Positions 8,740 to 63,598 of a stretch of DNA of 64,000 bases are shown here, piece after piece. The stretch covers positions 1 to 64,000 of the forward strand of contig CAVVUN010000009.1 in the NCBI GenBank assembly GCA_963751455.1, given 5' to 3'. The notes under the pieces were generated by a model, which was not told the DNA's origin, did no database searches, and worked only from the letters and a program-made list of their open reading frames with translations. The number at the start of each line of letters is the position of its first letter. Position 1 is the stretch's first letter. The translations under genes and the position numbers were made by a program. The DNA comes from Nitrospirota bacterium. GTDB lineage: Bacteria > Nitrospirota > UBA9217.

Positions 8740-8867
8740 AGCAGGCAGTTCGCGTCCTTCCTCCCAGTGAGGAAAGCGAACGATTGTCCCTCGTCCTTCG
8801 CGGTTATGATTTTCACTTGACTCGCATAAGGCCATTGTAGTAAATTCATCCATCGTTCTTCGTAGCT

Positions 8868-8885
8868 GTTGCAACAATCTGCAAC
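8868..8885. promoter_or_regulatory. Palindromic putative operator upstream of the Ehr operon
   Basis: GTTGCA-N6-TGCAAC about 150 bp before the hyfB start. Confidence 0.3.
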
Positions 8886-9034
8886 GAGTACCGATATTTG
8901 AAAATGGGCGTTGTAAGCATGGACTCGTTCGCGTAACAATTATTTTCTTTCTGTGCAATCACTTCCCGGCTTCAGTTCAAGAACCCCAACTCTCAGATAT
9001 CTCTTCCCGATCCTGTTCCGGAGGAGGGAAGAGC

Positions 9035-38546: not shown

Positions 38547-38621
38547 GGGCATGGCGCATAGCGTGGAGTACTGCGAAATTAGTGCGATCCTGAAGGCTGC
38601 GCTTTGCGCTATGCGCCATGC
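38547..38621. repeat. Heptamer (GCATGGC/GCATAGC) inverted-arm repeat between nadA and era
   Basis: GGGCATGGCGCATAGCG ... CGCTTTGCGCTATGCGCCATGC. Confidence 0.7.
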
Positions 38622-38672
38622 GGAAAGGGTTTTATGTTGCGCCGAATACCGATTTCGGGTATTCTACCGCTC

Positions 38673-39572: not shown

Positions 39573-39578
39573 AACGTT

Positions 39579-39725
39579 TATCCGCAGATTACGCAGATTC
39601 TATAGATTTCAAAGAACAGCAAATTACAGGAGGGGTAATGCTTTTAAAGCCCTTAAGCTATCAGTCTGCGTCATCTGCTTGTGCCCGGCGTTTTGGCAAC
39701 AGCAGGGTACGAAATCTGCAGATAG
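39579..39725. repeat. CGCAGATT 9-mer palindromic insert at the era/dedA junction
   Basis: TATCCGCAGATTACGCAGATT ... TCTGCGTCATCTGC ... AAATCTGCAGATA. Confidence 0.7.
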
Positions 39726-39731
39726 AATTGG

Positions 39732-40349
39732 ATGGATAAAATCATGCATGAACTGGTGAACTGGCTGGTCCAGACCATAGGCGCTCTCGGATACCCGGGT
39801 ATCTTCCTTCTGATGGCCATGGAGAGCTCGGTCATCCCGATTCCGAGCGAACTGGTGATGCCGCCTGCCGGCTATCTCGCGCATGAGGGAAGGATGAACA
39901 TCTGGTTCGCCATTCTGAGCGGCACCGCGGGCAGCCTTGTTGGCGCGTACGCGAACTATTTTGCGGCCCATTATCTGGGACGGCCGCTTGTCCTGAAATA
40001 CGGCAAGTACGTCTGGATCACCGAAGAAAAATTCGGGAAGGTCGAAACGTTCTTCAGAGACCATGGAGAGATATCGACTTTTATCGGCCGGCTGCTTCCC
40101 GTAATCAGGCATCTGATCTCGCTGCCCGCAGGACTGGCGGGCATGAACCATCTGACGTTCTCGCTCTATACGCTGCTCGGCGCAGGGCTGTGGGTCACGA
40201 TTCTGACGTACATCGGCTATTTCATAGGCGCGAACCGCGAACTCATTATAAAGTACTCGAATCAGGCGCTGATCGGCGCAGTTGTATTCAGTATCGTCAT
40301 CATCGCGGTTTATGTGGGGCGCCACAGAAGAAAAAAAGAAATTATGTGA
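39732..40349 (+). CDS. DedA family membrane protein
   Basis: ESSVIPIPSELVMPPAG, FIGRLLPVIRHLISLPAG. Confidence 0.93.
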   Translation: MDKIMHELVNWLVQTIGALGYPGIFLLMAMESSVIPIPSELVMPPAGYLAHEGRMNIWFAILSGTAGSLVGAYANYFAAHYLGRPLVLKYGKYVWITEEKFGKVETFFRDHGEISTFIGRLLPVIRHLISLPAGLAGMNHLTFSLYTLLGAGLWVTILTYIGYFIGANRELIIKYSNQALIGAVVFSIVIIAVYVGRHRRKKEIM

Positions 40350-46080: not shown

Positions 46081-46983
46081 TCACGCAGCCTTCTTTCGCT
46101 GTCTCTTCTTTAATCCTCTCAAATCGTTTTGCCTCATTGAGTGATAGGCTTCCCAGGCGTTCAGTAAAGGGGGTGCGAAAGAGCACGGGCTTCGTCTTGA
46201 AGTGTCTGTGAGTGCGGTTTTTATGTCCCGGGCAGTCGATCGCGGCAATACGGACCACAAGAGAGCTATAGCGCCGGTAACGAAAGGGACCGCGGTGCTC
46301 GTGCCGCAGAATTTCGCTGACTGACCGTTGCTTCCCAGGCTCGTTATTTTCTCCCCGGGCCCTCGCAGCCCGTTTCTACGGATTGAGTTCGCGATGTTCG
46401 AGTAAGCCGCAGGCCTGCCCCGCAGGTCGCAGGCAGCAACCGGTAAAACCCAGGGATGACGGGTAAGGGCCGAGCCGCTGATAATCCCCTGGTTGCCCGC
46501 AGCAGCAACTACGAGCACAGCTTTTTGAGCGGCAAAGTCAAGCGCGTCTTTAAGTTTACGGTCGCCCTCCGGTGAAGGTTCCTCCAGAGCTACACTCAAA
46601 TTCAGCACACGGGCGCCTTCCTGAATGCACTCGAAGATTGCGGATGCAAGCTCGACTGGAGTCGCTCCCGGCACTTCATCGGTACCCCGTGCGGGTTGTT
46701 CAAAAAAGACAGGCCGAATGAGAAGCGTGCAGCCGGGGCAGAGTGCGGGAGCTCTTGAGCTTCTTTTAGCTTTTAAAATACCGGCGATAAAAGTCCCATG
46801 CCTGCAGGCGGCATCGTCCGTGTCATTGCACGAAGCTCCTTCAGGGATAGTGCGGAGGTTTTCAGGATTAAGCTCCGGATGAGCTGTTGCAACCGGTCCG
46901 TCGATAAGCCCGATGACGACCTCCGGAATACCGCATGTCCGCTGCATCAACGGCGAAAGCCCGGTCAAGTTCAGTGCATTCAT
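46081..46983 (-). CDS. S8 subtilisin-like protease, PatA/PatG protease-domain type, no signal peptide
   Basis: Catalytic triad motifs IGLIDGPV, HGTFIAGIL and GTSTAVPFVTG; AAAGNQG; G.PEV.IG.IDGPV...HP.L N-terminus. Confidence 0.85.
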   Translation of the reverse strand: MNALNLTGLSPLMQRTCGIPEVVIGLIDGPVATAHPELNPENLRTIPEGASCNDTDDAACRHGTFIAGILKAKRSSRAPALCPGCTLLIRPVFFEQPARGTDEVPGATPVELASAIFECIQEGARVLNLSVALEEPSPEGDRKLKDALDFAAQKAVLVVAAAGNQGIISGSALTRHPWVLPVAACDLRGRPAAYSNIANSIRRNGLRGPGEKITSLGSNGQSAKFCGTSTAVPFVTGAIALLWSVLPRSTARDIKTALTDTSRRSPCSFAPPLLNAWEAYHSMRQNDLRGLKKRQRKKAA

Positions 46984-47501: not shown

Positions 47502-48155
47502 ATGCACCTTCTTTCAATACGGGTATTAATCGCTATCTTGATTATGTTATGTCCGTTCAGCCTTCGAGCAGAGGTGCGACCTTTGCCCGCTGATTGCACT
47601 TATGTTTTGCAGACCTGGAACGTGAACTCGAAGGCCAGCGTTAAGAGTCAAAAAGTGCGTCATCCCTATAAGGAGCTTACACCGGCTGAAATTGAACCCT
47701 TAACCGGATGTACGATCTGCAGCGAGGACCAGGAAACTATAAGCATACCGCCGCTTCCGCCTTTTTCCGTTTGTTTTAAACTGGCACCGAAAATACGGTC
47801 ATTGGCGGAGTATCTGGTCAAAAAGGGCGAACCACTTCAAACCGTGGTGGCGTATCACGTCATTAAATCACGAGGCCCGGTTGATGTAACAGGGAACAGG
47901 ACTGAGTTCAGCAACCATTCATTCGGAACAGCCATAGATATCAATCCAGAGCTGAACGGCCTGTACGATAACTGCATCAAGTTTGGCCCGGAATGCCGGT
48001 TGATCAGGGGCGGGGAGTGGCGTCCGGGCGTGCCCGGCACGCTCGAAAAAAACGGCGACATTGTCACGATGTTCAAGCAGGCGGGTTTTTTGTGGGGCGG
48101 CGAGATTGCAGGCAAGCAGAAGGACTTCATGCATTTTTCACTGACGGGGTATTAA
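47502..48155 (+). CDS. M15-family (VanY/D,D- or L,D-type) zinc peptidoglycan peptidase, secreted
   Basis: Signal peptide; SNHSFGTAIDIN (SxHxxGxAxD), WGG, DFMHF. Confidence 0.85.
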   Translation: MHLLSIRVLIAILIMLCPFSLRAEVRPLPADCTYVLQTWNVNSKASVKSQKVRHPYKELTPAEIEPLTGCTICSEDQETISIPPLPPFSVCFKLAPKIRSLAEYLVKKGEPLQTVVAYHVIKSRGPVDVTGNRTEFSNHSFGTAIDINPELNGLYDNCIKFGPECRLIRGGEWRPGVPGTLEKNGDIVTMFKQAGFLWGGEIAGKQKDFMHFSLTGY

Positions 48156-48380
48156 CGAGTAAAGAAATTTATGAGGATCGCGTTGTATCGTTACTGAGAA
48201 GTCATTTATTTCGGAGGTAGACTTGTGAAGGCTATAGTTGCTCTGTTCAAAGCACTGCTCGGCACTCTTTCAAAGCTTTTCGGTTCGTTCTCCTGGTCTC
48301 CTCCTCCTTGGTTCCAGTTTCCTATGAATCTCTCCTCGTTAAATTTTTCATTTATTGATATATTTTCCGCACCAGGGAGG

Positions 48381-51300
48381 ATGTCCATGAAGGCGAACCA
48401 TCGGCTCCATTGCCCAGGGATATGCATCTTGTGTGCTCTTGTTCCTCTTCTCCTGTTGTGCGGTTTGTACCCTGCCGGCCTGCATGCTGCGTCCTTGGCT
48501 TCCCAGGCCGTTTTGAGCAAATTCGATCTTCCCGCCCAGGGCCGCCAGGAATCTATCCTCACGATCACGGCATTCGGCCGTTACGCTGTTACCGTTAAGA
48601 GCGACCAGGGCACGGCATTGCAGCTTATTGACCGTATGGCAGGGCCGGGGACGATTTCCGGCGTCGCAGGCGAACGGGACGGCAGGCTCGATCTCTTCCT
48701 GGAACGGGGCGACTACAAGATTGTCACCCACGGTCATGACAAGGCATCCGGGACTATTCGACTGGAAGCGCATCCCTTTTCGGAGAAGAATGCTCCACAG
48801 TCTCCCGCCCTCGTAGAATACAAACTGATCGAGACGGAAGTCAACGATTTCGAGCAGGTGTCCTACTGGCTCGATGTTAAAGAACGCAAACGTGTGGTTC
48901 TCGAAGCAGCGGGACGGAACCTGGCTGATCTGCGCTTATGGAAAGACGGCGCGTGGCTGGTCGATGCCGCACCGGTCATCGAAACGGTCCAACCGAAAAC
49001 TGGTCAGCCTCTGCGGGTTTGTCGTCTGGCACCGGAACTCGAACAGGGCCTGTATCTTCTCACTGCATACGGCGGTGTTGCCCTTCCCTGGGCCGAGGAT
49101 GGTGGTCATCCGTTCTATATGCGCTCCGGCATTCCCGAACTCGGTTCAGTTACCCGCAAACGATTCAAAATAAGCCCATTCGGAACGGACCGCTTCATCG
49201 TTCCCGGCTCAAGCACTTACTTCAGGACGGAACTCCCTGAAGCGCGAGAACTGTCACTTCAATCAGGATGGATTAACTTGAGTGATCCGTTCAGCAATAA
49301 CGGACAAATCAAGAATATCCAGAAAAATTCATTGCCTCCCGTTGCCGAGTTGTTCACCGAGGGGAAAACAAATGCCAAGCACATCGTGACTGTCACCGGG
49401 GAGCCGGGTATGCCCTATGTATTTCAGCACTTCGAATTGAAATATTCATATTCATTTCAAGGCAGCGGAGATTACTGGATATCGAGCGTTCACTCCGGTC
49501 ATCCGCAGGATTCCGTGGACGCAACGGCGATTATGGCATCGGGCAGCGATATGTACGGGATCCGGCCCATGATGGAGCAGACGATCGAGTTGGATCAGAC
49601 AACGGGCTATTCACGCCGTGCAAATCTTCTGGAAACCCTTACGCTTTTTCTCAAGATCAAGACGAAAGGTCGATACCAGATTATTGCGCAGGGCGTTGAG
49701 GCTCGTTTTCTCATCGAACCATTCCTCATATCGCGTCCCCGGGAGTATTCCAGACCGAAAGCGCAGCCGGCAGGATACACATGGGACCTCGATGCCGGCT
49801 ACTATACGCTGACGGTGGATCCCGAGAAGAAGGGAATAATGGATTTGATCATCCGACCTGCTTCCTGGGTCAGCTGGGTATGGGGAAAACTTGACCTCGA
49901 TAAAGGCAAGACCGTACAGCCGGTCAGTGCAGCAATTCGTTTTCCCCGGGTCTCTCTTAACCGGGATCAATGGTATACCGTGTACATGAACCGTCAGCCT
50001 GAAGTTAAAACAGGGTTCGTCGTTCGCCCCCTGCCTCTGGACCTGACGGATCCGCTGCCCGTCACGCAGCGGCCTGATGAATCCGTGATCGTTCCTTTTC
50101 AGGTATCGGAAGAGGGGATCGTCCGGGCGGAGGCCGAGGACGGCTCGCTCATGGATTTGTCCGTTGACAAAGGGCCCTGGCAAAAAACATTCAACGTGGG
50201 AGCAGGAAAGCACTCTGTTTCAGTTCGATTGACTGCAAAAAATACTATCAATTATGCGTTATATGTCGAGCCGCGCAGGCTAAGTGCAGAGACTGGTCTG
50301 CCGGCCATTTCACAAACAGCGCTTGACAGCCTCCCTAAATTCCCGGTCCTCGCAAATACCAAGCCTCTTTTTTTCGATTTAGACCGCAATTCTTCATCGA
50401 CCTTTAACGTACAGGCCGACAAATCGGCCCTTTTCCAAATCCAGTCCACAGGGCTCCTTGCGACGGAAGGCAATCTTCGCAGCAGGACCACGCCGCAATT
50501 TGTGCGGGAATCCGAGAACGGAAAAGGGAGGAACTTCTTTATCCGGCAGTACCTGCATGAAGGAGATTACCAGATAACGGTTGCGAGCAAGGGACAGTCA
50601 AAGGGACACCTGGGCTTGACTATGGAGAAGAGCGGTCTGATTCAAGGCGGGTACCTCACGAACCGCACGCCGGCGCGCCTTTCCCTTCCTGCAGGAAAAG
50701 CTGCAGCGTATCAATTCGTTGTTACGAAAGCAGGCGAATACCGTGTCCGGGCATTCGGTCTCGGAAGAAAGCTGAAGTGGCGGCTCGAGGACAAGGAGGG
50801 CTGGCCGGTTGTCACTCCCAACACAAAGGCGGATATAACCCGCATTTTTGAGAAGGGCACATACCGTTTGATCATTCTTCCCGAAAGCACGGATGCGAAG
50901 ATTGTAACCGTAATCGATCCGGTGAAGCGCGGCCGTCGGTTTAAAGGACATGGCCCTCACGTGTTGCCGTTGGCTCTTCCAGTTGATCATACATGGACCG
51001 AACCGATTTCGGGAAAAGCACGACAGCCAGACAAGTGGAAATTCGAACTTCCCGCCGATGGCGATATATCGATTGAGTTAACGGGAGAGATGCAGGCTGA
51101 CCTTTTAAAAATCAACTCCGACGGAACGGCAACACGGACTGCATTCATTCCGCCGGTACGGGGATGGCAGGGCACCCTGCAGGCCGGCTCCTACCGGATC
51201 GAAGCGGTCTCCATGCGTATCAATAACCAGGCTGCGTATCGATTGGTTGTCTCTCCCCGTTCTCTCATGACCGGTATGAGCCGTGATATCAGTGTCCCAT

Positions 51301-53822
51301 CCGTCGTCCCGATCGCAATCGGGCAGGCGGGAGTGGCTGAATTGTCGTCTTTCGGCGATGTTGACGTAAAGGCTCGTTTGATGATCGATGACGGCACCTT
51401 GATCGCTGAGAATGACGATCGCCCCGATGACTGGAATTTCCATATCGTCACGACTTTGAAACCGGGCAATTATCGATTATATGTCGATCAGTCAGGACCC
51501 GGCCACGGCACGTGCACGGTATCGCTGAGGGTACCGAAGGAAGAGGGGAAAAATGCACTCATCCTGCCGACCAGTGCGAAGATAAAACTAAGCGATGCAG
51601 TTCAAATTTTTCCGCTTACACTTCCTTCCAGGGGAGAGCTCCTGATGCTTTCTGCGCCGGCGAGGGAAAACGTCGGACTTGCAGTGGAAGTCTCCGACCA
51701 GGGGGGATGGAAAACCATCGGAACGACATCGGGCCGTAACACCCACCTTGAGATACCCCTTCTCAATACCCGGCCGTCGATCTCAAATGTCAGATATCGC
51801 CTGCGCATCTGGTCCATGGACTATCGCCATACGTCCGTTGAACTCTCAGCGCAGTTCATTTCGCCTCGCCAATTCAGTGAAAGCGATTTGAAAAAAGGCA
51901 TACACCTGCCGCTTGTCGAGGGATCCAAAACCCCGATTGCGGCTGCAGTCGTGCGGATCGAGCGAGGCGGTTTGCTGCGGATCCCTGAAGAATTCCAACA
52001 TTTGCGCTGGTCTGCAGAGGTGCTCCGTTCCTGCTCACAACCCGAAAATTATCTTCCCGTTCAACACGGCTTTATCTGGATCACCGGAGAAACAACAACG
52101 CGAGGCCCGGCACCTGAGGCAAGGGCAGAACGCGCGGGTTTGGGGTCGGGGGAGGACAAAGCGATCCAGGTCAGAATGAACGGCGGGGAAAATATGCTGT
52201 GCGATCTCGCGGGCGACTGGCGCGGTCCCGTTATGGCAATCGCTTCGTCGCGCATCGGGCGTCCAGCCGCTGAGCTTATAGAGCAGGAAAAAAACGAACC
52301 GGTGAATACCAACCGGCTTGTAGTGGGCGAGCATGGCTCTCTCAGCTTGTCTCTCCATCCGAAAAATCCTGCGGTAAAGCTCTGGGCCGCTTCTCCTGTA
52401 GATGAACCATTTGAAGTGCGACTTCTGCAGATAAGCTTTCCCGCGCCAGAGTCGGCCTCCGCCAAGGAAGGCCTGCACGGTGCAATCGCCGGGAAGAAAG
52501 CGCGGGTGTACGAACTTCCGAATGGGAAAAAACGTATGCGGATTTCTCTTAGCGAAGCCCTTGTTGCGGCACTGCAGAAGGACGATGCCGTCGCAAGCGT
52601 GCATTGGGCTGAGGGAAATGCATTTACGGAAACGTTCGAAACGGATGCAGATCGTCTGCTTCTGCTTCATATGCGGGAGGAAGAGGACCATTTTGCAATC
52701 GAACTATCCCCCCTGATTGCTGATGTTTCTACACGAGCCCTCGCTATCGGAGTTCCCTTCGAAGAGGTCATGCTGAATTCAGGAAGGTTGAGGTTATCCG
52801 TTGATGCAGGTGAAACACGTATCAAAAGAACACTTCATGTCCGGGGTGCAAAGAAGGCCCTCTTTACCGACAAGCTGGGCAATGTCATCCCAGGCAATGA
52901 CATGGATATCGACGAACGGAACGGCGTGCTTATCATCGATCACGGACCCGGTCCGTTGCTCGCCTGGCTTGACAGACCGGGAGAAGAAGCTGCCGACCTC
53001 TGGGCCCTAACCAAGAAGCCCGACAGGACATCCATAACGTTGCCTGCTCTACTGCCCCTGGACGGGAAATCCCACGCGTACCGAATCGACGCCGGCAAAC
53101 CCGTGATGCTCCATGTCCGCAGTGCCACGCCCCTCGCAACCTACCTGGACCGCGGGGACAAAACGCCGGATGTAGAGGTCCATTCCCGGGGGGTCATGCT
53201 CGATGCCTATCTGCCGAGAGGATCTGGAGAAGTTCGGCTGCGCGCCCTAAACGGGGGCCGCATGTCCGGGCAGGTTTCGATTTCCGGGTCTCCGGTCCTG
53301 CCCACTGATGAAGGATTGGGGCCCGAGGTCCTGCTCGCAGCAGGTGCTACGAGATTGTTTTCGTTCACGGTCCGCGAGGAAAGCATGATCGGCGCGGGAG
53401 TGAAGGCTGATTCCGATGCCGTTGATATGGAAATCTTGAACAGCGCTGGAGCGGTTCTTGGCAGGGGCGTCGCCCAGATGCTGCGCCTGAAGCCGGGCGT
53501 CTATTTGATGAAATTGCACGCGTTTGATACCGGGCGGCCGGTAAAAGCGCAGCCTGCACTTGTCGGCCTGAAGACCCCTGATACCGGTCCTCCTCCCGAC
53601 GAGATCACGAAATACCTTCATCCTGAAACAGAAATGCCTGCTGCCTATTCAAGCCGCAGAGGCAATGTGACGCAGGACAGAGCATACCAAAGCCCGAGTG
53701 AACCCGCGTATGAAAGTGACAACCCGGCGCCCGCTCCTGAATCTGAATACGGCGAAGGCATGACTGAGGAAGGCGAACAAACCGTTGATCCGGGAAGTGG
53801 TGAAGGAGAACGAGAACCATGA
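48381..53822 (+). CDS. Giant secreted protein with many PPC-like beta-sandwich repeats (ORF open from 48225)
   Basis: RBS GGGAGG and a signal peptide after 48381. At least 8 LxxGxYxl motifs, including LIAENDD...NF.I...LKPGNYRLYV. Acidic tail. Confidence 0.8.
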   Translation: MSMKANHRLHCPGICILCALVPLLLLCGLYPAGLHAASLASQAVLSKFDLPAQGRQESILTITAFGRYAVTVKSDQGTALQLIDRMAGPGTISGVAGERDGRLDLFLERGDYKIVTHGHDKASGTIRLEAHPFSEKNAPQSPALVEYKLIETEVNDFEQVSYWLDVKERKRVVLEAAGRNLADLRLWKDGAWLVDAAPVIETVQPKTGQPLRVCRLAPELEQGLYLLTAYGGVALPWAEDGGHPFYMRSGIPELGSVTRKRFKISPFGTDRFIVPGSSTYFRTELPEARELSLQSGWINLSDPFSNNGQIKNIQKNSLPPVAELFTEGKTNAKHIVTVTGEPGMPYVFQHFELKYSYSFQGSGDYWISSVHSGHPQDSVDATAIMASGSDMYGIRPMMEQTIELDQTTGYSRRANLLETLTLFLKIKTKGRYQIIAQGVEARFLIEPFLISRPREYSRPKAQPAGYTWDLDAGYYTLTVDPEKKGIMDLIIRPASWVSWVWGKLDLDKGKTVQPVSAAIRFPRVSLNRDQWYTVYMNRQPEVKTGFVVRPLPLDLTDPLPVTQRPDESVIVPFQVSEEGIVRAEAEDGSLMDLSVDKGPWQKTFNVGAGKHSVSVRLTAKNTINYALYVEPRRLSAETGLPAISQTALDSLPKFPVLANTKPLFFDLDRNSSSTFNVQADKSALFQIQSTGLLATEGNLRSRTTPQFVRESENGKGRNFFIRQYLHEGDYQITVASKGQSKGHLGLTMEKSGLIQGGYLTNRTPARLSLPAGKAAAYQFVVTKAGEYRVRAFGLGRKLKWRLEDKEGWPVVTPNTKADITRIFEKGTYRLIILPESTDAKIVTVIDPVKRGRRFKGHGPHVLPLALPVDHTWTEPISGKARQPDKWKFELPADGDISIELTGEMQADLLKINSDGTATRTAFIPPVRGWQGTLQAGSYRIEAVSMRINNQAAYRLVVSPRSLMTGMSRDISVPSVVPIAIGQAGVAELSSFGDVDVKARLMIDDGTLIAENDDRPDDWNFHIVTTLKPGNYRLYVDQSGPGHGTCTVSLRVPKEEGKNALILPTSAKIKLSDAVQIFPLTLPSRGELLMLSAPARENVGLAVEVSDQGGWKTIGTTSGRNTHLEIPLLNTRPSISNVRYRLRIWSMDYRHTSVELSAQFISPRQFSESDLKKGIHLPLVEGSKTPIAAAVVRIERGGLLRIPEEFQHLRWSAEVLRSCSQPENYLPVQHGFIWITGETTTRGPAPEARAERAGLGSGEDKAIQVRMNGGENMLCDLAGDWRGPVMAIASSRIGRPAAELIEQEKNEPVNTNRLVVGEHGSLSLSLHPKNPAVKLWAASPVDEPFEVRLLQISFPAPESASAKEGLHGAIAGKKARVYELPNGKKRMRISLSEALVAALQKDDAVASVHWAEGNAFTETFETDADRLLLLHMREEEDHFAIELSPLIADVSTRALAIGVPFEEVMLNSGRLRLSVDAGETRIKRTLHVRGAKKALFTDKLGNVIPGNDMDIDERNGVLIIDHGPGPLLAWLDRPGEEAADLWALTKKPDRTSITLPALLPLDGKSHAYRIDAGKPVMLHVRSATPLATYLDRGDKTPDVEVHSRGVMLDAYLPRGSGEVRLRALNGGRMSGQVSISGSPVLPTDEGLGPEVLLAAGATRLFSFTVREESMIGAGVKADSDAVDMEILNSAGAVLGRGVAQMLRLKPGVYLMKLHAFDTGRPVKAQPALVGLKTPDTGPPPDEITKYLHPETEMPAAYSSRRGNVTQDRAYQSPSEPAYESDNPAPAPESEYGEGMTEEGEQTVDPGSGEGEREP

Positions 53823-53971
53823 GCCGGCTTGTCATGAGGAGCGAATATACCGAATCGCATTCATCACTCAGAATAGATGCGGGAAGTGATACGAGCGTTG
53901 AAAGACGCCGGGAACCGGTATCGAGCACGATTCATAATCTGCGATATACAGCATTACCAAGGAGAGCAAAC

Positions 53972-56900
53972 ATGCAAAACCGTTTTTCAGGAATGCTTCT
54001 GGCCATGTTGATTCTCGTCACGCCCGTTGTCGTCCGGGGTGAATCCAGGCAGGCAGCGGCGATTATTCGACCGGAATTTGTCACAGAAACCACGATTATC
54101 CCGGAGCATTTTCTTCGGCGTTGGGATCCGGTAACGATTTTCTTTACCCGGGAACGGGGACCGAAGAACGGCGGTCCCGAAGACCATCCGGACAAATACG
54201 TTACCGTGGATACGGATCACCCCGGAGCTTATCGGTGGCTCGACGACAGGACGCTTCAGTTTCAACCTTCCGAACCCTGGCCTTCGCTGTCACGCTTTAT
54301 CTGGACCGTCGACAAAAAAGCCACGGCTCTCTTCACATTGATGGAAGCGCCGGTCACAATGAACCCGGCTGACAAGACGGAGGGACTGGAGCAGGTGAAG
54401 AATATAGCGCTCACCTTTGCAGAGCCGCTCGATCCCCAGGCTTTGGCAAGCATGGTCTCGCTCGAACTGCGGCCTTTGCCCGGCGCAGGATCTGATAAAT
54501 CCCGCTGGCTTACCAAAAACGATTTTACGATCAAAGTCATGGAGCGGCGGTCCCGCTCGGACAAAGCTTCCTACGTGCTCACTCTGAAGGAGCCGATCTC
54601 CCACGGGATCAAGACGATCGTGCATATGCGCCTGGCGCTGGATGACAAGGTTACAGAATCATTTAGAGAGTTTTCTTTTTCCACTGCCGAGCCCTTCCGG
54701 GTCGTGGCCCTCGGAACAAGAGAACGAAGATATCCTGTTACTCCCGAAGGTTCTCATTATTCCCGGGAACAGGCCATTCGCGGCGAATCCTCGGAACGGA
54801 GCGTTATAGTTGATTTTTCGTCTCCGCCGGACCTTGCTGACGACTCCCTGACATTGTCGGGAAGAAACCTTGTCGGATTCGCTCCTGCTGTCCCCCGGCT
54901 TACGTATCGGCTCGAAGGAAGCCAACTGGTCATCGCGGGCGACTTCGCTCGCGACACGCTTTACCGGGTTTCGCTTTCACCGGTCCCGGTCAGCGACAAG
55001 CAGGGAAAGCACCTTGAAATGAAAGGCGCGAGCGACCTGTTCGTGTATTTTCCCCGCAGCCAATCCTACGTCCGGCTGAGAGCCGGGCAGGGCATTGTTG
55101 AACGGTTCGGAAAGCAGTTGATCCCGGTGGAAGGCAGAGGAGAAGAGCGCATAGACCTTCGCATCTATCCAGTGCAGCCGCTAGACCGGTCGTTCTGGCC
55201 TTTTCCCGGCTATCCGCTCGAAACAGATGATGGCAGTCGGCCGCCTGGACCTGGTGAAGAGCCCGAACCGTTTACTGCGCCTGACCAGTCAGCCCGAGCA
55301 GACGAATTAGTCCGCCAGATTTCGATCCTGGGATCGCCGCCTGTCTCGGCACTCGTTGCGCTGCCTCTCAAAAAGGAAGGCGGATCGGCTTCCTTTGGTC
55401 TTGATCTTACGCCGCATCTTGCAAAGCTTTCCGGAAAAGATCAACCCGGCTCATATTTGATCGGTTTGCGAGATCTTGCTGTGGGGAGCAGACGCACATG
55501 GATCCGGCTTCAGGTTACTGACCTTTCACTTACTACGATTGAAGAGCCGGATGCAGTCAAATATATCGTCACATCCCTTCACTCGGCTGAGCCCGTCTCC
55601 AAGGCACGTATACACATCGAAGGCACTCTTTATGATCGCGGTAAACCGTCGTGGATGACGCTTGCAGAGGGGATCACTGACGGGGATGGTATATTCCGCT
55701 GGCGCGCTCCCGGCCGGACCCGCTCAGGCGAGCAGAAAACGGTGCGGCGGATTATAGTGGAGAAGGACAAGGATCTCCTCGTCTTCGATCCCGCAAATCC
55801 GCCTGATGTGTATTTCGACAATCAATGGTCGGTCGACCGGTCACCGTGGCTGCAATGGACCCATGAATCACTTGAAGGGCGCGGAGCGCAGCCGCAAATG
55901 GTGAGCCACATTTTCACGGACCGTCCCGTATATCGCCCAGAAGAGGAAGTTCATATCAAAGGATATCTCCGCAAACGGGAGAAAGGACATCTTCAGCCGG
56001 TCAAGACGGGCGGCTGGCTGATCGTCGAGGGCCCGGGTGATGTTTCCTGGAAATATCCGGCGACCCTGACCGACGTGGGCAGCTTCTACCATGCTTTTTC
56101 TGAAAAAGATCTTCCCACGGGAACGTACTCGGCGCACCTCGAAAACCAGGACCGTACAGAAACGTATGGTCGGGTTACCTTCCAGATGGAGGCGTATCGA
56201 CTCCCGCTTTTCGAGGTCAATCTGCACGCCGCGGACCAGGTTTCGCTGGACAAAGAATTCGAGGTGAAACTTGCAGCCTCCTATTATGCGGGCGGCAAAG
56301 TAGGCGGCCGGCCCGTGGAATGGCGCGTAACCCAGTATCCTTTTGCATGGACTCCCAGGAAACGGGAGGGGTTCCTTTATTCATCAGACGGCCGTTTTTC
56401 CCGGACTGAACGGTTTCAGGCGTCGCCCCGTCTCGAAAAACAGGATACGACGGACGAAAACGGTTCCGCGTCGATCATGCTCAATCCTGCCCTGGAACTG
56501 ACTGCGCAGCCCCGGACCTACATGGTCGAAGCGACGGTCACGGGAGCGGACGATCAGACAGTGACAGCTTCAAAATCGATTTCCGCACTTCCTGCATTTG
56601 TTCTCGGACTGAAGGTGCCTCGTTATATCGAGAAGGCAAAAGAGATCGCACCGGAGATCATTGTCGTGGGACCGGATGACTCGCTGCTCAAGGACAAAGA
56701 AGTGACGGTCCGGCTTCTGCGGCGGGAGTGGCACTCGGCGCTCAAGGCGAGCGACTTTTCTGACGGCGTTGCCCGATATGTAACCGACGTGGTTGATGAA
56801 AAGATTTCTGAAAAGACGATCAGAAGCGGAGCGGAGCCCGTCAAAACAACGTTCCCGGTTCCGAAAGCCGGGGTATACATTGTCGAACTGGAAGCGCACG

Positions 56901-59794
56901 ATAAATTGGACCGCGCGCAAGTCGTGCGCGTCGATCTGTACGCAGGCGGTGATGAGCGTGTTGCCTGGCCCAAACCGATTACGCGCATATTCACCGTTAC
57001 GCCGGACAAGGCCAAATACGATCCGGGCATGACAGCGAAGATCATTTTGCAGAGCCCGTTCCAGAAAGCCCGTGCCCTTGCCATTGTTGAAACGCCTGAC
57101 GGCAACAAGTATCACTGGCTCGATGTCGAAGGAGCCACGGCCGTCTTTTCCCTTCCTATTGAAGGTAATTATGCACCTCGCTTGCCGGTTCACTTCATCC
57201 TCATGAGAGGCCGGTTGGCCGGCACGGGACCTTCTCCTGCAGGCGGCATGGATATGGGAAAACCGGAAACCATGGCTGCTACAGCCTGGATCGACGTCAA
57301 TCCCGTTGCTCACCAGATGAAGGTGGAGCTCGAATATCCTCCCGTGGCGCGTCCTGGAGAAAAAATCAAGGTCGGCGTTTCGCTCAAAGATCCTTCAGGC
57401 AAACCTCTTTCCGGCGAGGTTACGCTCTGGCTTGTTGACCAGGCGGTGCTGTCTTTGGGCAAAGAGCAGCATCTTGATCCCGTGCCTGATTTTATCCGGC
57501 AGGTCCACTCCTTTATCAAGGTCCATGATTCCCGCAACCTGGCGTTCGGCAACCTGCCTTTTGCAGAGAACCCGGGCGGCGACGAGGGCAGTGAAGAGTC
57601 GCTCCTTGAGAAGGTCACAGTGCGGAAGAATTTCAAGACGGTGCCGTACTATAATCCTCTCATCATGGTCGGTCCCGATGGAAAGGCCGTCGTGGAGATC
57701 ACGCTCTCCGATGACCTGACGAACTTTAAACTGCGGGCGAAGGCCGCATCAGGAGCCGAGCGTTTCGGTTTTGGAGTGGGGCACCTGGCCGTGAGACTGC
57801 CGCTGATCGTGCAGCCGGCCCTTCCACGCTTCGTCCGTCCAGGAGATTCATTTACGGCAAAAGCGATAAGCAGGATCGTGGAAGGAAAGGACGGGCCGGG
57901 TCAAGCGGAGTACAAGGTGCAGGGAGCGAAGATCACCGGTCCGGCGAAACAGGAGTTACAGTGGACCGGCAGCAACCCGCTTGCTATCGAATTCCCGGTG
58001 GAAGTGGCTTCTCCAGTCTACACCACCGAGGGCAAACCATCGATCCAGAACGTGACGTTTACGGTCGGTGTACGGAGGAATTCGGACAACGCAAAGGACG
58101 CGTTTGAGGTCAAGCTGCCGTTCCGAGAGGATCGGGGCAGGGTATCTAAGCGAAAAATTGCGGAGCTGAAGCCTTCTGAGCCTTTTATTATTGAGGCAGT
58201 TAACGAAAAGGTGCGGCCCGGTACACTGACCCGCTCGGTTCTGCTCTCAGACCAACCCGGTCTCATCAAAATGGCGGCGGGTCTGGACTTCTTCATGCAC
58301 TACCCCTACGGGTGCACCGAGCAGCAGCTCAGCCGAGCCCGCGTCTATATGGCTTTGCGTAAATTCCGAACGCTGTTGAAACAGGAAGGTTCGGACAAAG
58401 AAATGAAACGGGCCGTGAGCGAGGTCATGAATTTGATCCCGACCGTTATCGACGGAAACGGCCAGGTCGCATTCTGGCCGGGTTCCAGGGGATACGTCAG
58501 CCTGACTGCCTGGACGGTGCAGTTTTTTATAGAGGCAAAAGAGGCGGGGTTCACGATCGATGAAAAAATTCTTACCCAACTGATGAACTCTCTTGAACAG
58601 GCCCTGCGTTCCGATTACAGCCACTTTATAGACGGAGAATCGTTTGCCGAACGGGTATGGGCGCATCTTGCCCTGACACGAGCAGGCAAATACAACGCAG
58701 CATACGCTGCAGAGCTGTCGAGAAAAGCCGAGTTCCTGAACCTTGAAAGCATTGCGGCGATCCTCTATTCCTTCTCACTAGCAGAGCAAAACTCGTCAAC
58801 GGCAACACAGCTCGAAAAGGCGCTCTGGGACGGCATTGTGGTGCGTTTGTATCAGGGACGTGAAATGTACGGAGGCCTGCAGGAAAAAAACACTACACGG
58901 AACAATTTGATCCTTCCGACAGAAACACGCACGCTCGCGGAGATGACCCGCGCTGTTGCCCGCTACGACGGTAAGAATCAACGGCTTCCGCTCCTCGTCG
59001 ATTCACTGGTAACGCTCGGCCGCGACGACGGGTGGGGAACCACAAACGCAAATGCCGAGGCGCTTCTTGCCTTGTCGGAAATACTGAAACCTCCTTATTC
59101 GGGTGCAAAAGCGGCCCAGGTCCGTGTTAAGCTTGACGGAAAAGAGCAGACAATTAATCTGGGATCCGACCTCCCGCTGGGTTTTGTCTCAGGAAACGGC
59201 TTGAGTGCCGGGGAAGCGCTTCTTCAAAGCAAAACAGGATCGAAGCCTGTAGCTGTCCGTGTGGACACATCATACGTGCCTGCTGAAGACGGCAGCAAGG
59301 TGGCGGCGGAGAGCAACGGATTCGTTGTGACCCGTGAATTGCTGCTGATCCAGAAAGACGGCCCCCCGAAGAAAATCGCCTTGACCCAGGCAGGCACGAC
59401 GCAGACTTTTGCGGTCGGAGATGTCATTGAAGAGCATGTGCAGGTCGTGAATCCCAAAGAACGCCACTATGTCGCCGTGACCGCGCCGCTCGCGGCCGGC
59501 ATGGAACCGCTGAATCCGAAGCTCCAGACAGCGCCGCCCGAGGCCGCTCCTAACGGAAATACAACGCTTAACCCGACGTATATAGCCTATCAGGACGATC
59601 AGGCAGCGTTCTATTACAACGTGCTCCCTGCAGGGACCTATGATTTTTATTTCCGGACAAGAGCAACAGTTGTCGGGACATTTATCCAGCCCGCTGCTAA
59701 GGCAGAGACGATGTACGATGGCGCGGTGTTTGGCCTTTCGAACGGGGCGAAGATCGTTGTCAATGAAAAAGAGGAGAATCATGGAGAGCGCTAA
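53972..59794 (+). CDS. Bacterial alpha-2-macroglobulin
   Basis: MG2 FTDRPVYRP.E.V..KG; LWLVDQAVL.L; VRKNF; LPRFVRPGD; thioester YPYGCTEQ; LAAGMEP; AETMY. RBS AAGGAG. Confidence 0.95.
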   Translation: MQNRFSGMLLAMLILVTPVVVRGESRQAAAIIRPEFVTETTIIPEHFLRRWDPVTIFFTRERGPKNGGPEDHPDKYVTVDTDHPGAYRWLDDRTLQFQPSEPWPSLSRFIWTVDKKATALFTLMEAPVTMNPADKTEGLEQVKNIALTFAEPLDPQALASMVSLELRPLPGAGSDKSRWLTKNDFTIKVMERRSRSDKASYVLTLKEPISHGIKTIVHMRLALDDKVTESFREFSFSTAEPFRVVALGTRERRYPVTPEGSHYSREQAIRGESSERSVIVDFSSPPDLADDSLTLSGRNLVGFAPAVPRLTYRLEGSQLVIAGDFARDTLYRVSLSPVPVSDKQGKHLEMKGASDLFVYFPRSQSYVRLRAGQGIVERFGKQLIPVEGRGEERIDLRIYPVQPLDRSFWPFPGYPLETDDGSRPPGPGEEPEPFTAPDQSARADELVRQISILGSPPVSALVALPLKKEGGSASFGLDLTPHLAKLSGKDQPGSYLIGLRDLAVGSRRTWIRLQVTDLSLTTIEEPDAVKYIVTSLHSAEPVSKARIHIEGTLYDRGKPSWMTLAEGITDGDGIFRWRAPGRTRSGEQKTVRRIIVEKDKDLLVFDPANPPDVYFDNQWSVDRSPWLQWTHESLEGRGAQPQMVSHIFTDRPVYRPEEEVHIKGYLRKREKGHLQPVKTGGWLIVEGPGDVSWKYPATLTDVGSFYHAFSEKDLPTGTYSAHLENQDRTETYGRVTFQMEAYRLPLFEVNLHAADQVSLDKEFEVKLAASYYAGGKVGGRPVEWRVTQYPFAWTPRKREGFLYSSDGRFSRTERFQASPRLEKQDTTDENGSASIMLNPALELTAQPRTYMVEATVTGADDQTVTASKSISALPAFVLGLKVPRYIEKAKEIAPEIIVVGPDDSLLKDKEVTVRLLRREWHSALKASDFSDGVARYVTDVVDEKISEKTIRSGAEPVKTTFPVPKAGVYIVELEAHDKLDRAQVVRVDLYAGGDERVAWPKPITRIFTVTPDKAKYDPGMTAKIILQSPFQKARALAIVETPDGNKYHWLDVEGATAVFSLPIEGNYAPRLPVHFILMRGRLAGTGPSPAGGMDMGKPETMAATAWIDVNPVAHQMKVELEYPPVARPGEKIKVGVSLKDPSGKPLSGEVTLWLVDQAVLSLGKEQHLDPVPDFIRQVHSFIKVHDSRNLAFGNLPFAENPGGDEGSEESLLEKVTVRKNFKTVPYYNPLIMVGPDGKAVVEITLSDDLTNFKLRAKAASGAERFGFGVGHLAVRLPLIVQPALPRFVRPGDSFTAKAISRIVEGKDGPGQAEYKVQGAKITGPAKQELQWTGSNPLAIEFPVEVASPVYTTEGKPSIQNVTFTVGVRRNSDNAKDAFEVKLPFREDRGRVSKRKIAELKPSEPFIIEAVNEKVRPGTLTRSVLLSDQPGLIKMAAGLDFFMHYPYGCTEQQLSRARVYMALRKFRTLLKQEGSDKEMKRAVSEVMNLIPTVIDGNGQVAFWPGSRGYVSLTAWTVQFFIEAKEAGFTIDEKILTQLMNSLEQALRSDYSHFIDGESFAERVWAHLALTRAGKYNAAYAAELSRKAEFLNLESIAAILYSFSLAEQNSSTATQLEKALWDGIVVRLYQGREMYGGLQEKNTTRNNLILPTETRTLAEMTRAVARYDGKNQRLPLLVDSLVTLGRDDGWGTTNANAEALLALSEILKPPYSGAKAAQVRVKLDGKEQTINLGSDLPLGFVSGNGLSAGEALLQSKTGSKPVAVRVDTSYVPAEDGSKVAAESNGFVVTRELLLIQKDGPPKKIALTQAGTTQTFAVGDVIEEHVQVVNPKERHYVAVTAPLAAGMEPLNPKLQTAPPEAAPNGNTTLNPTYIAYQDDQAAFYYNVLPAGTYDFYFRTRATVVGTFIQPAAKAETMYDGAVFGLSNGAKIVVNEKEENHGER

Positions 59795-59890
59795 CAAGGT
59801 GCAGCAGATGTAAAATCGATCTTGCCTATACGCCGGAGAGAAGTCATAAATAGAGAGCCACGGAGATAGGCCTAAATAAGGAGGAATCAT

Positions 59891-61120
59891 ATGAAAAGAG
59901 GATTGTTCGTTGCGATTGCCGTATTCGTTCTATTTGCCGGTATTTCCTTTGCCGACGACTGGAACCTGGTAAAGAATGTGAAACGGCTGGAGCGTGTATC
60001 TCCCGATTATCCGGACGATAAGGACATCGACAAGAAGTTTCTTGACGTTCTCGATCTAACAGAGAAGACGAAGACCAACCCCGAAGTGTATCAGGCGCTA
60101 AAAAAGATTGCATCAATGCCTTCTTTGTCACAGAGCAAATACATGGATTCCTTTCTGTACTTCATGCTCGTCAAGTCATCATCGCTGTACAAGACGGGAA
60201 CAAGTGAGCCCGACTTCTGGCTGGGCCTTCTCAATTCTTATGACAAAAGCCCTCATCTCCTTGCTGCGCATCTTGTACGGATGAAACTCGCGGCGAAAAA
60301 TTCGTCTGACGTCCGCAGGGAGGCGCAGATCATTGCGGACTGGGTCAAAGCGCAAAAAAACGAGATGAAGGTCCGCGCGCCGGAATACACCGGCAACGTT
60401 CTGCTCGGTTACAAACCCCGTGTTTCTTTTGCTGAAGGAGAGTACCTCAAACTCTATAAACTCTCTTATTATATAGAGACTGTTACTCCTCCAGCCGGAT
60501 TTCTCGAAGACGACACGTATGTTTCCGTTCTTTCAAAGATTAAGGAAGGCCGCGAGGACATCTTGACCGAGATGGCGGCCATTTACCGCAAGATGGGAAA
60601 GCGAAAGGAAGCATCGGATATCCTTTTTCAGCATGCTATGCTGAAAGCGAATGCTAAGGATTTCCAACGGGCAAAGACACTCCTTGATGACGCTGTCAGG
60701 TTCAACCCGGAAAACGCCGCCGCGAAGAAGGAACGGGACAGGATAAAGCTTGAATTGACTTATCAATCGCTTGAACCAGCGGTCCCGGCTGCCGCGTCGG
60801 CGTCCGAGTCCGTTCAGGAAAAACAGGCAGAACCGGCCGCTGTCCCTGACCAATTGAAAAACGTGAATGGGTATCTGATTCCGGCCGATCGCATAATAGC
60901 CGAATCCGAGCTTCTGGGGAAAAGCAGAGCGGAACTTCGGGTAATGCGGAATGAAATTTTTGCCCGTCATGGAAAGATCTTTGAATCCGCGGACCTCAAC
61001 GATTATTTTTCTCAGAAGTCATGGTATACTCAAAATCCGAACTACTCGGACACTCTTTTGTCCGATATTGATAAAGAAAATATCAGAATCATTCGGGAAA
61101 CTGAGAACAGAGCACAATGA
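59891..61120 (+). CDS. Secreted TPR + YARHG-domain protein
   Basis: Signal peptide; TPR-like AKTLLDDAVRFNPEN; C-terminal LRVMRNEIFARHG.IF....L..YF....WY. Confidence 0.9.
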   Translation: MKRGLFVAIAVFVLFAGISFADDWNLVKNVKRLERVSPDYPDDKDIDKKFLDVLDLTEKTKTNPEVYQALKKIASMPSLSQSKYMDSFLYFMLVKSSSLYKTGTSEPDFWLGLLNSYDKSPHLLAAHLVRMKLAAKNSSDVRREAQIIADWVKAQKNEMKVRAPEYTGNVLLGYKPRVSFAEGEYLKLYKLSYYIETVTPPAGFLEDDTYVSVLSKIKEGREDILTEMAAIYRKMGKRKEASDILFQHAMLKANAKDFQRAKTLLDDAVRFNPENAAAKKERDRIKLELTYQSLEPAVPAAASASESVQEKQAEPAAVPDQLKNVNGYLIPADRIIAESELLGKSRAELRVMRNEIFARHGKIFESADLNDYFSQKSWYTQNPNYSDTLLSDIDKENIRIIRETENRAQ

Positions 61121-61183
61121 AATTCAAAATCGGCCTTGGGATAAAATCAACAACAGCTTCTTAAATACGAGAGTCCGAGCACT

Positions 61184-63598
61184 ATGCTATGTCGATTGAT
61201 TCATTTTGAAAAAAAGCAGACCGCTCTACTAGCTTTAGCAGGAGTTTTTTTCCTCGCGTTGCTGCTCGTGCTTACCGGCATTGCGTACCACCGCGCCCAC
61301 TTGACATCACCTGACCCTACCTATTTCCTGCGCGACCGGCATGGCGCGTTCCTTGGCGAGGTTGGTGCCCCTGTTGACGGTGAGTACGGCTATTGGGAGC
61401 TGGAAACCATGCCGCCGCGCGTGGCAGCGGCAACCCTCGCCGTCGAAGACCGGAGGTTCTGGAACCATCCCGGGGTCGATGTACTTGCTGTTGCCAGGGC
61501 CTTGTATCAGAATACCATTCGCCTGAAACGGTCTTCCGGCGCATCGACGATCGCCATGCAGGTGACGCGCATGCAGAATCCAGGCTCCCGAAGCTATCTC
61601 AGGAAAGCAGTGGAAGCAATGACGGCGTTCTTTATTACGGCCCGGTTCAACCGCGAGGATATTCTGAAACACTATCTTTGCATCGTCCCGTATGGAAACC
61701 GGATCCACGGCATAGCGTACGCCGCACGCCGCTATTTTGACAAGCCGGTGGATGATCTCAGCTGGGCTGAAACTGCTTTTCTGACCGCAATTCCTCAAGC
61801 CCCGAAACGCTTGAATCCTTTTACGGAACAGGGGAAGAAGCGCGCGGCCCTCAGGGGAAAACGCATCCTGGACCTGCTATATCGTGACAAAGCGCTGAAC
61901 AGGGAAGAGTACGAACTCGCCTGTCTCCAAATTGAGGATCTTGCGGTTCCGCGACCGGGCATCAGGCCTGAACAGGCCATGCATGCGTTGCTCAGGATGG
62001 AGAGCATGCTGAAAGACAAGTCAGTGCAGCTTCAACCCCAGACGGGTCGGCTGGTCACGACCACACTTGACCTGGACTTGCAAAATGAAATGAGCCGACT
62101 CGTGTACGAGACAATAAGAAAATGGGATGCTGCGGGCGCACGAAATGCTGCAGCCATTATCGTGGATCGTGAAAGCAACGAGATCCTGTCGTGGATCGGG
62201 TCTACCGATTATTTTAACGAGTCCCATTCGGGAGCAATCGATTACGGGGATGTTCCACGGTCACCGGGCAGCGCGCTAAAACCGTTCTTCTATGCTCTTG
62301 CTCTTGAATCGCGCGACATAACGCCCTCAACGATTCTGAACGATCTGCAGCGGGGTCCGGGTGGGATCGTGAATGCCGACGCATTATTCATGGGACCCGT
62401 TCTGCCTCGCGTTGCTCTTGCTAATTCCCGAAATGTACCTGCAGCGGCGCTCCTGGAACAAATCGGCATTGAAAAGGGATATGATTTTCTTCGCGTTCTC
62501 GGCCTGCACCATGGCGAAGAGCCTGCGAGCCGGTACGGCGTGGGCATGTCGATCGGAAATTTTCCGGTTACGCTCGAAAAACTCGTACGCGCGTATTCCG
62601 TATTGTCGCGAGAAGGCCGTCTCGACGATCTGGTATGGTTCAAGGGGCAGACGAAAACGGCATCGCGACGCGTTCTGTCAGAAGACACAACCAGGCAAAT
62701 TGCACTCTTTCTTTCCGATCCGCTTGCGCGGATGCCCGGATTTTCGCGCATGAGTGCGCTCGAGTTTCCTTTTCCTGTTGCAATTAAAACCGGCACTTCA
62801 TCGCGCTTTCGGGACGCGTGGGCCTTGGCATTTTCCGTCCGCTATCTCGTAGGCGTATGGGTAGGGGACCCGGATTTCCAGCCCATGAACCATCTTACCG
62901 GCTCGACATCTGCTGCGGAACTTGTTAAAAATATATTGACCACCCTGCACGCTGATCAGCAGACCGGATTAAATGATCTGTCCTTCCCGCCGCCCCGAGG
63001 CTTCAAAGCGGCGCGAGTGTGTGCCCTGACAGGGAACCTGGCAACTGATGCCTGCGATCGGGTGCTCCTCGAATGGTTCAGGCCATCGGAATACCCGGTC
63101 AATCACTGCTCGGTACATGTCCGGATCGCGATTGACGGTCGAACCGGCATCCCGGCGTTGTCGACGACACCTCGTGAGTTCATAACCGTCAGGACGTTTG
63201 TCGATCTCCCTCCACGATATGCCGACTGGGCTGCGGCAGCCGGGCTCAGTATGCCGCCCAAAAGGCCGGTTGACAATGCACTGTTCAAACCGGGTTCAGA
63301 GGAAGCGCTGCTTTCCCTTCGCGATAAAAAGGTTCTTGTAAATATCGTTTCCCCGGAAAACGGCCTGCGCCTGATTCGCGACCCTGAAACGCCAGAAGAC
63401 CAGGCAACACTGGCATTAAGGGCTGTTGTTGATCCCGTTGTTCCGCAACTGGTGTGGTATGTGGACGGGAAACCCTTCCAGGTTGCGGACTATCCCTACA
63501 CAGCGCGTCTTGCGCTCACTCCCGGGGAGCACACGATACAGGCAGGTTTTCCTGATGCGCCTTTTTCTTCAAGACGGGTCACAATAATTGTCCAGTAA
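61184..63598 (+). CDS. pbpC: Penicillin-binding protein 1C
   Basis: TG motifs EDRRFW.HPG and GASTIAMQ; TP motifs SALK, SRN, KTGTS; C-terminal WYVDG domain; follows A2M. Confidence 0.93.
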   Translation: MLCRLIHFEKKQTALLALAGVFFLALLLVLTGIAYHRAHLTSPDPTYFLRDRHGAFLGEVGAPVDGEYGYWELETMPPRVAAATLAVEDRRFWNHPGVDVLAVARALYQNTIRLKRSSGASTIAMQVTRMQNPGSRSYLRKAVEAMTAFFITARFNREDILKHYLCIVPYGNRIHGIAYAARRYFDKPVDDLSWAETAFLTAIPQAPKRLNPFTEQGKKRAALRGKRILDLLYRDKALNREEYELACLQIEDLAVPRPGIRPEQAMHALLRMESMLKDKSVQLQPQTGRLVTTTLDLDLQNEMSRLVYETIRKWDAAGARNAAAIIVDRESNEILSWIGSTDYFNESHSGAIDYGDVPRSPGSALKPFFYALALESRDITPSTILNDLQRGPGGIVNADALFMGPVLPRVALANSRNVPAAALLEQIGIEKGYDFLRVLGLHHGEEPASRYGVGMSIGNFPVTLEKLVRAYSVLSREGRLDDLVWFKGQTKTASRRVLSEDTTRQIALFLSDPLARMPGFSRMSALEFPFPVAIKTGTSSRFRDAWALAFSVRYLVGVWVGDPDFQPMNHLTGSTSAAELVKNILTTLHADQQTGLNDLSFPPPRGFKAARVCALTGNLATDACDRVLLEWFRPSEYPVNHCSVHVRIAIDGRTGIPALSTTPREFITVRTFVDLPPRYADWAAAAGLSMPPKRPVDNALFKPGSEEALLSLRDKKVLVNIVSPENGLRLIRDPETPEDQATLALRAVVDPVVPQLVWYVDGKPFQVADYPYTARLALTPGEHTIQAGFPDAPFSSRRVTIIVQ

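Follow-up and report, generated by a model that had tools for sequence, protein, structure and literature searches.

The contig CAVVUN010000009.1 of a Nitrospirota bacterium (assembly GCA_963751455.1) carries five co-oriented open reading frames (ORFs) on the + strand, at positions 47502..63598 of the 64,000 nt stretch that we analyzed (hereafter the window). In order, they encode an M15 peptidase, a giant protein, a thioester alpha-2-macroglobulin (A2M), a protein with TPR-like and YARHG regions (TPR-YARHG) and the penicillin-binding protein (PBP) PBP1C. An earlier note on this DNA had assigned the ORFs to named families and considered the partners of the A2M to be exported. ORF calls and Pfam searches bore out the assignments, and the only hydrophobic stretch in each of the five proteins lies at its N-terminus. 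The GC content of the locus is near that of the rest of the genome. A scan of the locus for promoters and terminators gave counts at chance (11 vs 9.4; 24 vs 19.4), so the operon structure is not established.

A conserved three-gene core

Conservation of the locus was surveyed with the giant protein as query in 71 GTDB loci (from the best 80 of 271 stretches) and 74 metagenome loci (from the best 80 of 295); some contigs are present in both sets of these 145 survey loci. Together with 40 loci from a reciprocal search, for which the N-terminal 660 aa of the A2M served as query, and three plasmid loci, the collection came to 188 loci, a redundant set that includes some short ones. Neighboring genes were scored by tblastn and hidden Markov model (HMM) searches; automatic ORF clustering was not relied on, because antisense frames dominated its output for loci of high GC content. 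Labels beginning with L denote fetched loci, and those beginning with G denote genomes, G000 being the window's own. We distinguish three A2M types: A2Ma, which is giant-associated and unanchored, A2Mb, which is membrane-anchored, and A2Mc, the CVEQ type.

Where the giant gene was complete and the downstream sequence could be judged, an A2M gene followed in 58 of 58 loci from GTDB and in 32 of 34 from metagenomes; in one of the two metagenome exceptions (L097), a toxin-antitoxin-like pair follows the giant gene, after which the contig ends. The same association was found from the other direction. In one phylum, the A2M N-terminal query matched 13 of 301 genomes; in a second, it matched 42 of 251, from which 30 loci were fetched. 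The giant gene was directly upstream of A2Ma at 12 of 13 and 30 of 30 loci, respectively; when the two centre genomes are left out, the counts become 11 of 12 and 29 of 29 (together 40 of 41). A PBP1C gene was present after A2Ma in 45 of 49 GTDB and 19 of 20 metagenome loci that could be judged. Seven Rhizobium plasmid records also carry the giant gene, and all three that were examined show the giant, an MG2 protein and a transglycosylase in a row. No conserved gene was found between the members of the trio in the survey loci. Named loci with the trio belong to the Nitrospirota, Elusimicrobiota, Acidobacteriota, Pseudomonadota and deltaproteobacterial lineages, with a patchy distribution in which only 4 of 64 genomes in the window's own family have it. 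These data show that giant, A2Ma and PBP1C constitute a conserved three-gene unit whose members are mutually linked across phyla, and this trio likely forms a previously undescribed envelope-defense unit.

Sequence distances of the trio members were also compared. Across 53 trios, giant and A2M distances were strongly correlated (r 0.96), and the partial correlation was 0.81 given PBP1C; the partial correlation between giant and PBP1C given A2M was 0.00. Inter-protein covariation between giant and A2M (76 paired rows, Neff 57) gave scattered pairs and no cluster.

By eye, inserts often lie between the core genes, consisting of toxin-antitoxin-like pairs, PIN genes or four-helix-bundle-like genes (L071, L097, L255, L199, L006, L055). 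An OmpA-domain protein is encoded between A2Ma and PBP1C in L033 (21091-21972), and a flotillin gene lies upstream of the trio in L297.

The giant protein is predicted to be a chain of beta-sandwiches

The gene for the giant, an exported all-beta protein of 1,811 aa, occupies 48387..53822 (+ strand) and is one of the core genes. The longest ORF is 1,865 aa, and its in-frame upstream part is a relic of another A2M gene, described below as the scar. ATG 48387 is the most likely start, given its Shine-Dalgarno sequence GGAGG and the 5´ end shared with close homologs, a comparison that places the beginning of the giant's own 5´ end near 48360. Since GGAGG Shine-Dalgarno sites precede both the GTG of the scar (48211-48227) and the ATG of the giant (48373-48389), a longer chimeric giant with an A2Mb leader could be made.

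Homologs of the giant number 398 in the full-length range, and an N-terminal profile matches 801 clusters at 50% identity, fragments counted. The close named homologs are from the Nitrospirota and Elusimicrobiota, and the Atlas matches are two clusters of 1,743 and 1,766 aa followed by PPC proteins. Pfam gave one PPC hit (PF04151), which is sub-threshold (E 0.0025, 19.1 bits vs a 25.9 cut-off), a search of the Protein Data Bank (PDB) with the giant profile gave no match, and neither Pfam nor NCBIfam detected a catalytic family. No fusion of giant and A2M was found among 2,701 longer candidate proteins, which is weak evidence.

An AF2 model of residues 38-1050, built from a 102-row alignment (pLDDT 92.5, pTM 0.81), predicts a nearly all-beta chain of ~10 sandwich modules; the protein ends in an acidic tail. 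By VIA-align, modules 7-10 superpose on PPC, collagen-binding, CUB and PliG-type folds at Z 10-13, with modules 1-6 barely compared. Modules 7, 9 and 10 have the PPC jelly-roll fold (Z 11-13 to PPC-type domains), the best matches being the ColG collagen-binding domain (CBD) 1nqd (Z 13.0, rmsd 2.0, 98 residues aligned), 5sv5 (Z 12.7) and Tk-SP (Z 11.2). Module 9 aligns as well to the lysozyme inhibitor PliG (4dzg; Z 10.7, rmsd 3.0, 98 aligned). Foldseek ranks CUB tandems, A2M/complement chains and ColG s3a-s3b for the giant, all with low TM-scores, and a profile self-comparison of the giant gave clear links among modules 7-10 alone (hhalign probability 52-86). The earlier description of a giant PPC-repeat protein therefore holds for the length of ~1,800 aa and for the fold of modules 7-10, but the repeats are not near-identical, the protein being a chain of highly diverged beta-sandwiches. 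The giant differs from these fold relatives in having no attached peptidase domain and ~10 or more diverged modules in fixed order, with sequence identity of 10-18%. We predict from the model that the giant is a non-catalytic, rigid scaffold of PPC/CUB-like beta-sandwiches.

The giant has no membrane anchor, and a lipobox pattern is present in only 1 of 213 full-length homologs. Some homologs carry additional domains. An LprI-like motif was found in 14 of 165 giant ORFs that have their N-terminus, one of which is confirmed by Pfam, and Pfam confirmed LprI in 7 of 21 further homologs chosen for extra length; homolog P0257 has two inserted SH3_3 domains. DUF1311/LprI is cited among the immunity domains of type VI secretion systems (T6SS) (PMC12135965). 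These LprI and SH3b fusions point toward a wall-directed defense, without proving inhibition. Giants with an N-terminal LprI/DUF1311 were noted in L014, L038, L041, L042, L048, L115, L121, L123, L130, L138, L147, L296-L298, P0142 and others; the named ones are alphaproteobacterial, except L042, which is labeled Terriglobales.

A2Ma and PBP1C retain the motifs of their families

The A2Ma gene (53972..59794, + strand; a core gene) encodes a 1,940 aa protein with a signal peptide and no membrane anchor; an alternative start at 53819 overlaps the stop codon of the giant gene. Its Pfam set consists of bMG3, MG2, MG3, bMG6, A2M_BRD, A2M and bMG10, of which bMG3 and MG3 are below cut-off. The thioester motif C-T-E-Q (58313..58324, + strand; residues 1448-1451) lies in YPYGCTEQ (1444-1451). 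Read from ATG 53972, C1448 of this motif is the sole cysteine of the protein, so there is no lipobox and lipidation is impossible, in agreement with the earlier note, which had described a CTEQ thioester and no evident lipobox. GCTEQ is present in most relatives examined, and their N-termini, read by eye, have cleavable-type signals and no conserved cysteine. A2Ma is 22% identical to Escherichia coli YfhM. A quick tree was built from 22 A2Ma rows drawn at random from 85, four A2Mc rows and YfhM, A2Mb having been excluded by the GCxEQ motif filter; in this tree, A2Ma formed a separate clade (SH-aLRT 100). A PDB sequence search with A2Ma gave no match at E 0.001; with the N-terminus, only Ig-like domains of L,D-transpeptidases matched.

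PBP1C (61184..63598, + strand), the third core gene product, is a bifunctional class A PBP with an N-terminal membrane anchor and the Pfam domains Transgly, Transpeptidase and BiPBP_C. Its score against TIGR02073, 465.7 bits, is slightly under the 494.2 cut-off. The protein keeps EDRRFWNHPG, GASTIAMQ, SALK, SRN and KTG, which we take to be glycosyltransferase and transpeptidase motifs. In the window, the gene is one gene away from A2Ma, the one between encoding TPR-YARHG.

M15 and TPR-YARHG are satellites of A2M systems in the family

The two remaining genes are accessory. The M15 gene (47502..48155, + strand) encodes a 217 aa M15_4 zinc peptidase with a signal peptide, predicted to act on peptidoglycan (Pfam PF13539, E 4e-13). 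Its SNHSxGTAxDIN and QKDFMHFS segments are >90% conserved in 121 homologs and fit SxHxxGxAxD and DxxH-type motifs, presumably metal-binding or catalytic. TPR-YARHG (59891..61120, + strand) is an exported protein of 409 aa with a Pfam YARHG match (E 7.5e-21) and weak TPR hits below cut-off. Like known YARHG proteins (PF13308; PMC3355149), it has a C-terminal YARHG domain and a signal peptide, and it differs from them in its TPR-like N-terminal region and in belonging to a clade tied to A2M/PBP1C loci. Binding of YARHG to peptidoglycan has been proposed, without demonstration (PMC3355149).

The earlier note had counted both proteins as A2M partners in a distinct, uncharacterized multi-component system, and had allowed that its proposal would fall if the partners were not conserved beside the A2M. 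For the giant-type A2M, this lack of conservation is what we found for M15 and TPR-YARHG; the idea of a distinct, uncharacterized A2M variant stands for giant, A2M and PBP1C. Among the 188 loci, an intact M15 gene occurred once, in a betaproteobacterial giant operon (L008) where PBP1C immediately follows it, with one fragment besides, and TPR-YARHG was present on two distinct contigs; neither was found in the 40 reciprocal loci from two other phyla. Outside the family, the centre genome was the only one of 251 in a betaproteobacterial order with M15, the copy in G1110 has no A2M genes within 1.5 kb, and a plasmid search for M15 gave no match.

Within the phylum, 14 of 300 other genomes have M15 orthologs, five directly before A2Mb (G240, G174, G135, G023 and G255), two after PBP1C, five unlinked and two at contig edges. 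An A2M over cut-off is present in 12 of 13 M15-positive genomes of the family vs 25 of 63 overall, although related genomes such as these do not count as independent cases. Members of the TPR-YARHG family turned up in 16 of the 63 genomes of the family and in 0 of 237 other genomes of the phylum. The window protein falls in a clade of eight (support 100/99), all encoded beside A2M or PBP1C genes and most often directly after A2Mc; other copies are in housekeeping contexts. M15 and TPR-YARHG are general satellites of A2M/PBP1C systems in the family, mostly with other A2M types, and are not fixed parts of the giant system. A paralogous TPR-YARHG group in L162-L168 lies, by eye, in an IclR-YARHG-larE-purD context unlinked to A2M.

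All five genes are present at one island in three of the four giant-bearing family genomes (G000, G174 and G255, spread over two contigs in the last), and their order is different each time. In relatives, this hotspot is occupied by between one and three different A2M/PBP1C systems. The five-gene set is local, not general.

The sequence between M15 and giant suggests how the set arose. A ~114 bp scar (48225..48338, + strand) comprises a Shine-Dalgarno sequence, a GTG start and the first ~38 codons of A2Mb, a protein that carries an N-terminal membrane segment, in frame with the giant. The scar is 56% identical to the A2Mb N-terminus over 34 aa (tblastn) and 81-83% identical to A2Mb 5´ ends in the same position after M15 (blastn; E 9e-20, 5e-17), with identity falling from ~80% to <55% past about 48320. 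A tblastn search for the A2Mb body elsewhere in G000 gave no further match. Given this A2Mb-like scar after M15, the giant 5´ end near 48360 and the absence of an A2Mb body in the genome, M15 is most simply, and likely, what remained when the body of an M15-A2Mb unit was replaced.

A second PBP1C gene (type b, 68-81% identical to the copy in a relative) is found in three pieces 8 kb past the operon (G000:C9:71436-76077); the larger insert in it has reverse-transcriptase (group II intron-like) fragments. This broken gene is likely the orphan partner of the deleted A2Mb, and TPR-YARHG and M15 are likely derived from two further A2M systems of this hotspot.

Several further genes were noted around the island. 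By eye, it is flanked by era-dedA (window 38604-40349) and recO-like genes (G000:C9:76360-77250). PBP1C is followed by a pair that is, by eye, NfeD-like and flotillin-like (window 63865 to G000:C9:66307), and a 232 aa ORF with many imperfect 14-residue repeats lies at G000:C9:67272-67970. The divergent S8 subtilase gene next to M15 (46081..46980, - strand; best families mycosin and PatA/PatG, both below cut-off) was considered as a member of the system and ruled out, since it is absent in 145 of 145 survey loci.

Discussion

Two types of bacterial A2M have been described (PMC3735191, PMC5764988): type I has a lipobox, a thioester and pbpC, and type II lacks the cysteine and is encoded in a six-gene operon. 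A2Ma resembles type I proteins (E. coli yfhM/ECAM-pbpC, Salmonella Sa-A2M) in its CxEQ thioester, its MG/BRD/A2M/bMG10 domains and its downstream PBP1C gene, but has no lipobox, shares ~22% identity with YfhM, is ~290 aa longer and has a 1,800 aa upstream partner that is probably obligate. Like the type II protein MagD (Pseudomonas aeruginosa magABCDEF), it is unlipidated and travels with operon partners, on which it may depend, as the gene linkage suggests. MagD, however, has neither a thioester cysteine nor a pbpC neighbor and is held by the membrane-anchored MagB; it forms 1:1 complexes with its operon partners and is degraded without MagB (PMC3735191, PMC5764988). The A2Ma system has a thioester, PBP1C and a three-gene core with one giant, anchorless all-beta partner. 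Failing one type I feature and two type II features, the A2Ma subfamily fits neither type. The Pfam scan assigned no Mag family to the giant; no direct homology search against Mag proteins was made. Archaeal A2Ms beside Ig-domain surface proteins are a loose parallel (PMC8416519).

In the explanation that we consider probable, the giant has no enzymatic role and serves as an obligate partner subunit that keeps the A2Ma trap in position in the periplasm. Exported A2Ma, with one thioester cysteine and neither lipobox nor membrane anchor, would be bound by the predicted rigid chain of the giant, whose gene accompanies it in fixed order from both search directions. By analogy with MagB and MagD, this binding would substitute for a lipid anchor by stabilizing and localizing A2Ma, perhaps at the peptidoglycan. 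As the biochemistry of the E. coli and Salmonella A2Ms suggests, an invading periplasmic protease would cut the bait and be captured by the thioester, and PBP1C may meanwhile re-polymerize the wall, a hypothesis summarized in PMC5764988. At this locus, the giant-A2Ma-YARHG-PBP1C block appears to have replaced the M15-A2Mb body, leaving M15, the observed scar and the broken second PBP1C.

Several observations weigh against an obligate partner subunit. Locus L101 contains no A2M gene in the 4.3 kb that follow the giant. In the draft genome G460, no giant was found, and A2Ma is preceded by a PIN gene and a contig start 822 nt upstream. In 5 of the 69 loci that could be judged, no PBP1C gene follows A2M. 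The distance co-variation is not proof of contact, since linked genes are inherited together and the giant is the neighbor of A2M. Having no membrane anchor, the giant cannot anchor A2M in the manner of MagB, so any tether would be via peptidoglycan or PBP1C. By their N-termini, A2Mc proteins have no obvious lipobox and they have no giant, which indicates that a missing lipobox alone does not require one. The fold model spans only residues 38-1050 of the 1,811. In the case of Salmonella ScwA, the LprI domain by itself gave no resistance to lysozyme; the protein affects a lytic transglycosylase instead (PMC7933661). Finally, giant-A2Ma binding is a proposal drawn from the linkage and the likeness to MagB-MagD.

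Three other explanations were weighed. The giant could be an independent, co-regulated defense protein whose PliG/PPC-like array binds or decoys lytic enzymes without contacting A2M. The match of module 9 to PliG and the LprI fusions, with the citation of this domain as a T6SS immunity domain, fit such a decoy. The PliG match ranks under the PPC and collagen-binding matches, however, a common fold shows no function, and a solitary giant would be expected more often than in 1-2 of 92 loci, making this explanation unlikely. It is quite unlikely that the trio builds a surface or extracellular structure, such as an adhesin or S-layer-like lattice, for whose assembly PBP1C opens or remodels the wall. 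PPC, CBD and CUB folds typically occur in extracellular modules that bind substrates, both large proteins lack a lipobox, and L006 has pilin-like and PilC-like genes next to the island (7147-9172, between A2Mb and giant). Yet both the thioester motif and the set of A2M domains have been conserved, no conserved secretion-system gene was found near the trio in the survey loci, and pairing with PBP1C is the hallmark of periplasmic type I A2M (PMC3735191). A single breach-sensing, wall-repair complex of all five proteins, as the earlier note proposed, is improbable: the co-orientation and export of all five products, the three complete islands, the position of M15 in L008 and the enrichment of A2M in M15-positive genomes are compatible with it, but M15 and TPR-YARHG are rare in the 188 loci, gene order differs in every genome having all five, M15 precedes A2Mb or the scar, the YARHG clade is mostly after A2Mc or before a third PBP1C type, and searches found no giant in 13 of the 16 family genomes with a YARHG-family gene or in 10 of the 13 with M15.

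We tentatively suggest, as a possibility on which we would not rely, a third class of bacterial A2M, a two-subunit complement-like trap. Here, the giant would be a polyvalent array of PPC/CUB/PliG-like modules, in some cases extended by LprI and SH3b, that would capture wall-lytic enzymes and proteases of predators or T6SS attackers and present them to the thioester A2M beside PBP1C. Each A2M type in the family might have its own tether or helper (a membrane anchor and M15 for A2Mb, TPR-YARHG for A2Mc, the giant for A2Ma), with cassettes swapped at one hotspot.

A full-text literature search, judged by title and abstract and covering few subscription journals and no supplements, gave no giant partner and no link of M15 or YARHG to A2M, and the excerpts of PMC12939704 and PMC3355149 hold nothing on a giant-A2M system. 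The mosaic origin of the M15 and TPR-YARHG extras is newly described here, and the TPR-YARHG clade tied to A2M loci offers a candidate role for the YARHG domain. The A2Ma subfamily is widespread in free-living bacteria, near-invariably with a large uncharacterized partner, which suggests that it functions in conflict between microbes and not in the colonization of hosts. The intact copies of the trio in culturable Rhizobium, such as those in records NZ_CP020952 and NZ_CP035000, make the system tractable, and the trio offers a way to test what bacterial A2M-PBP1C pairs protect the cell from.

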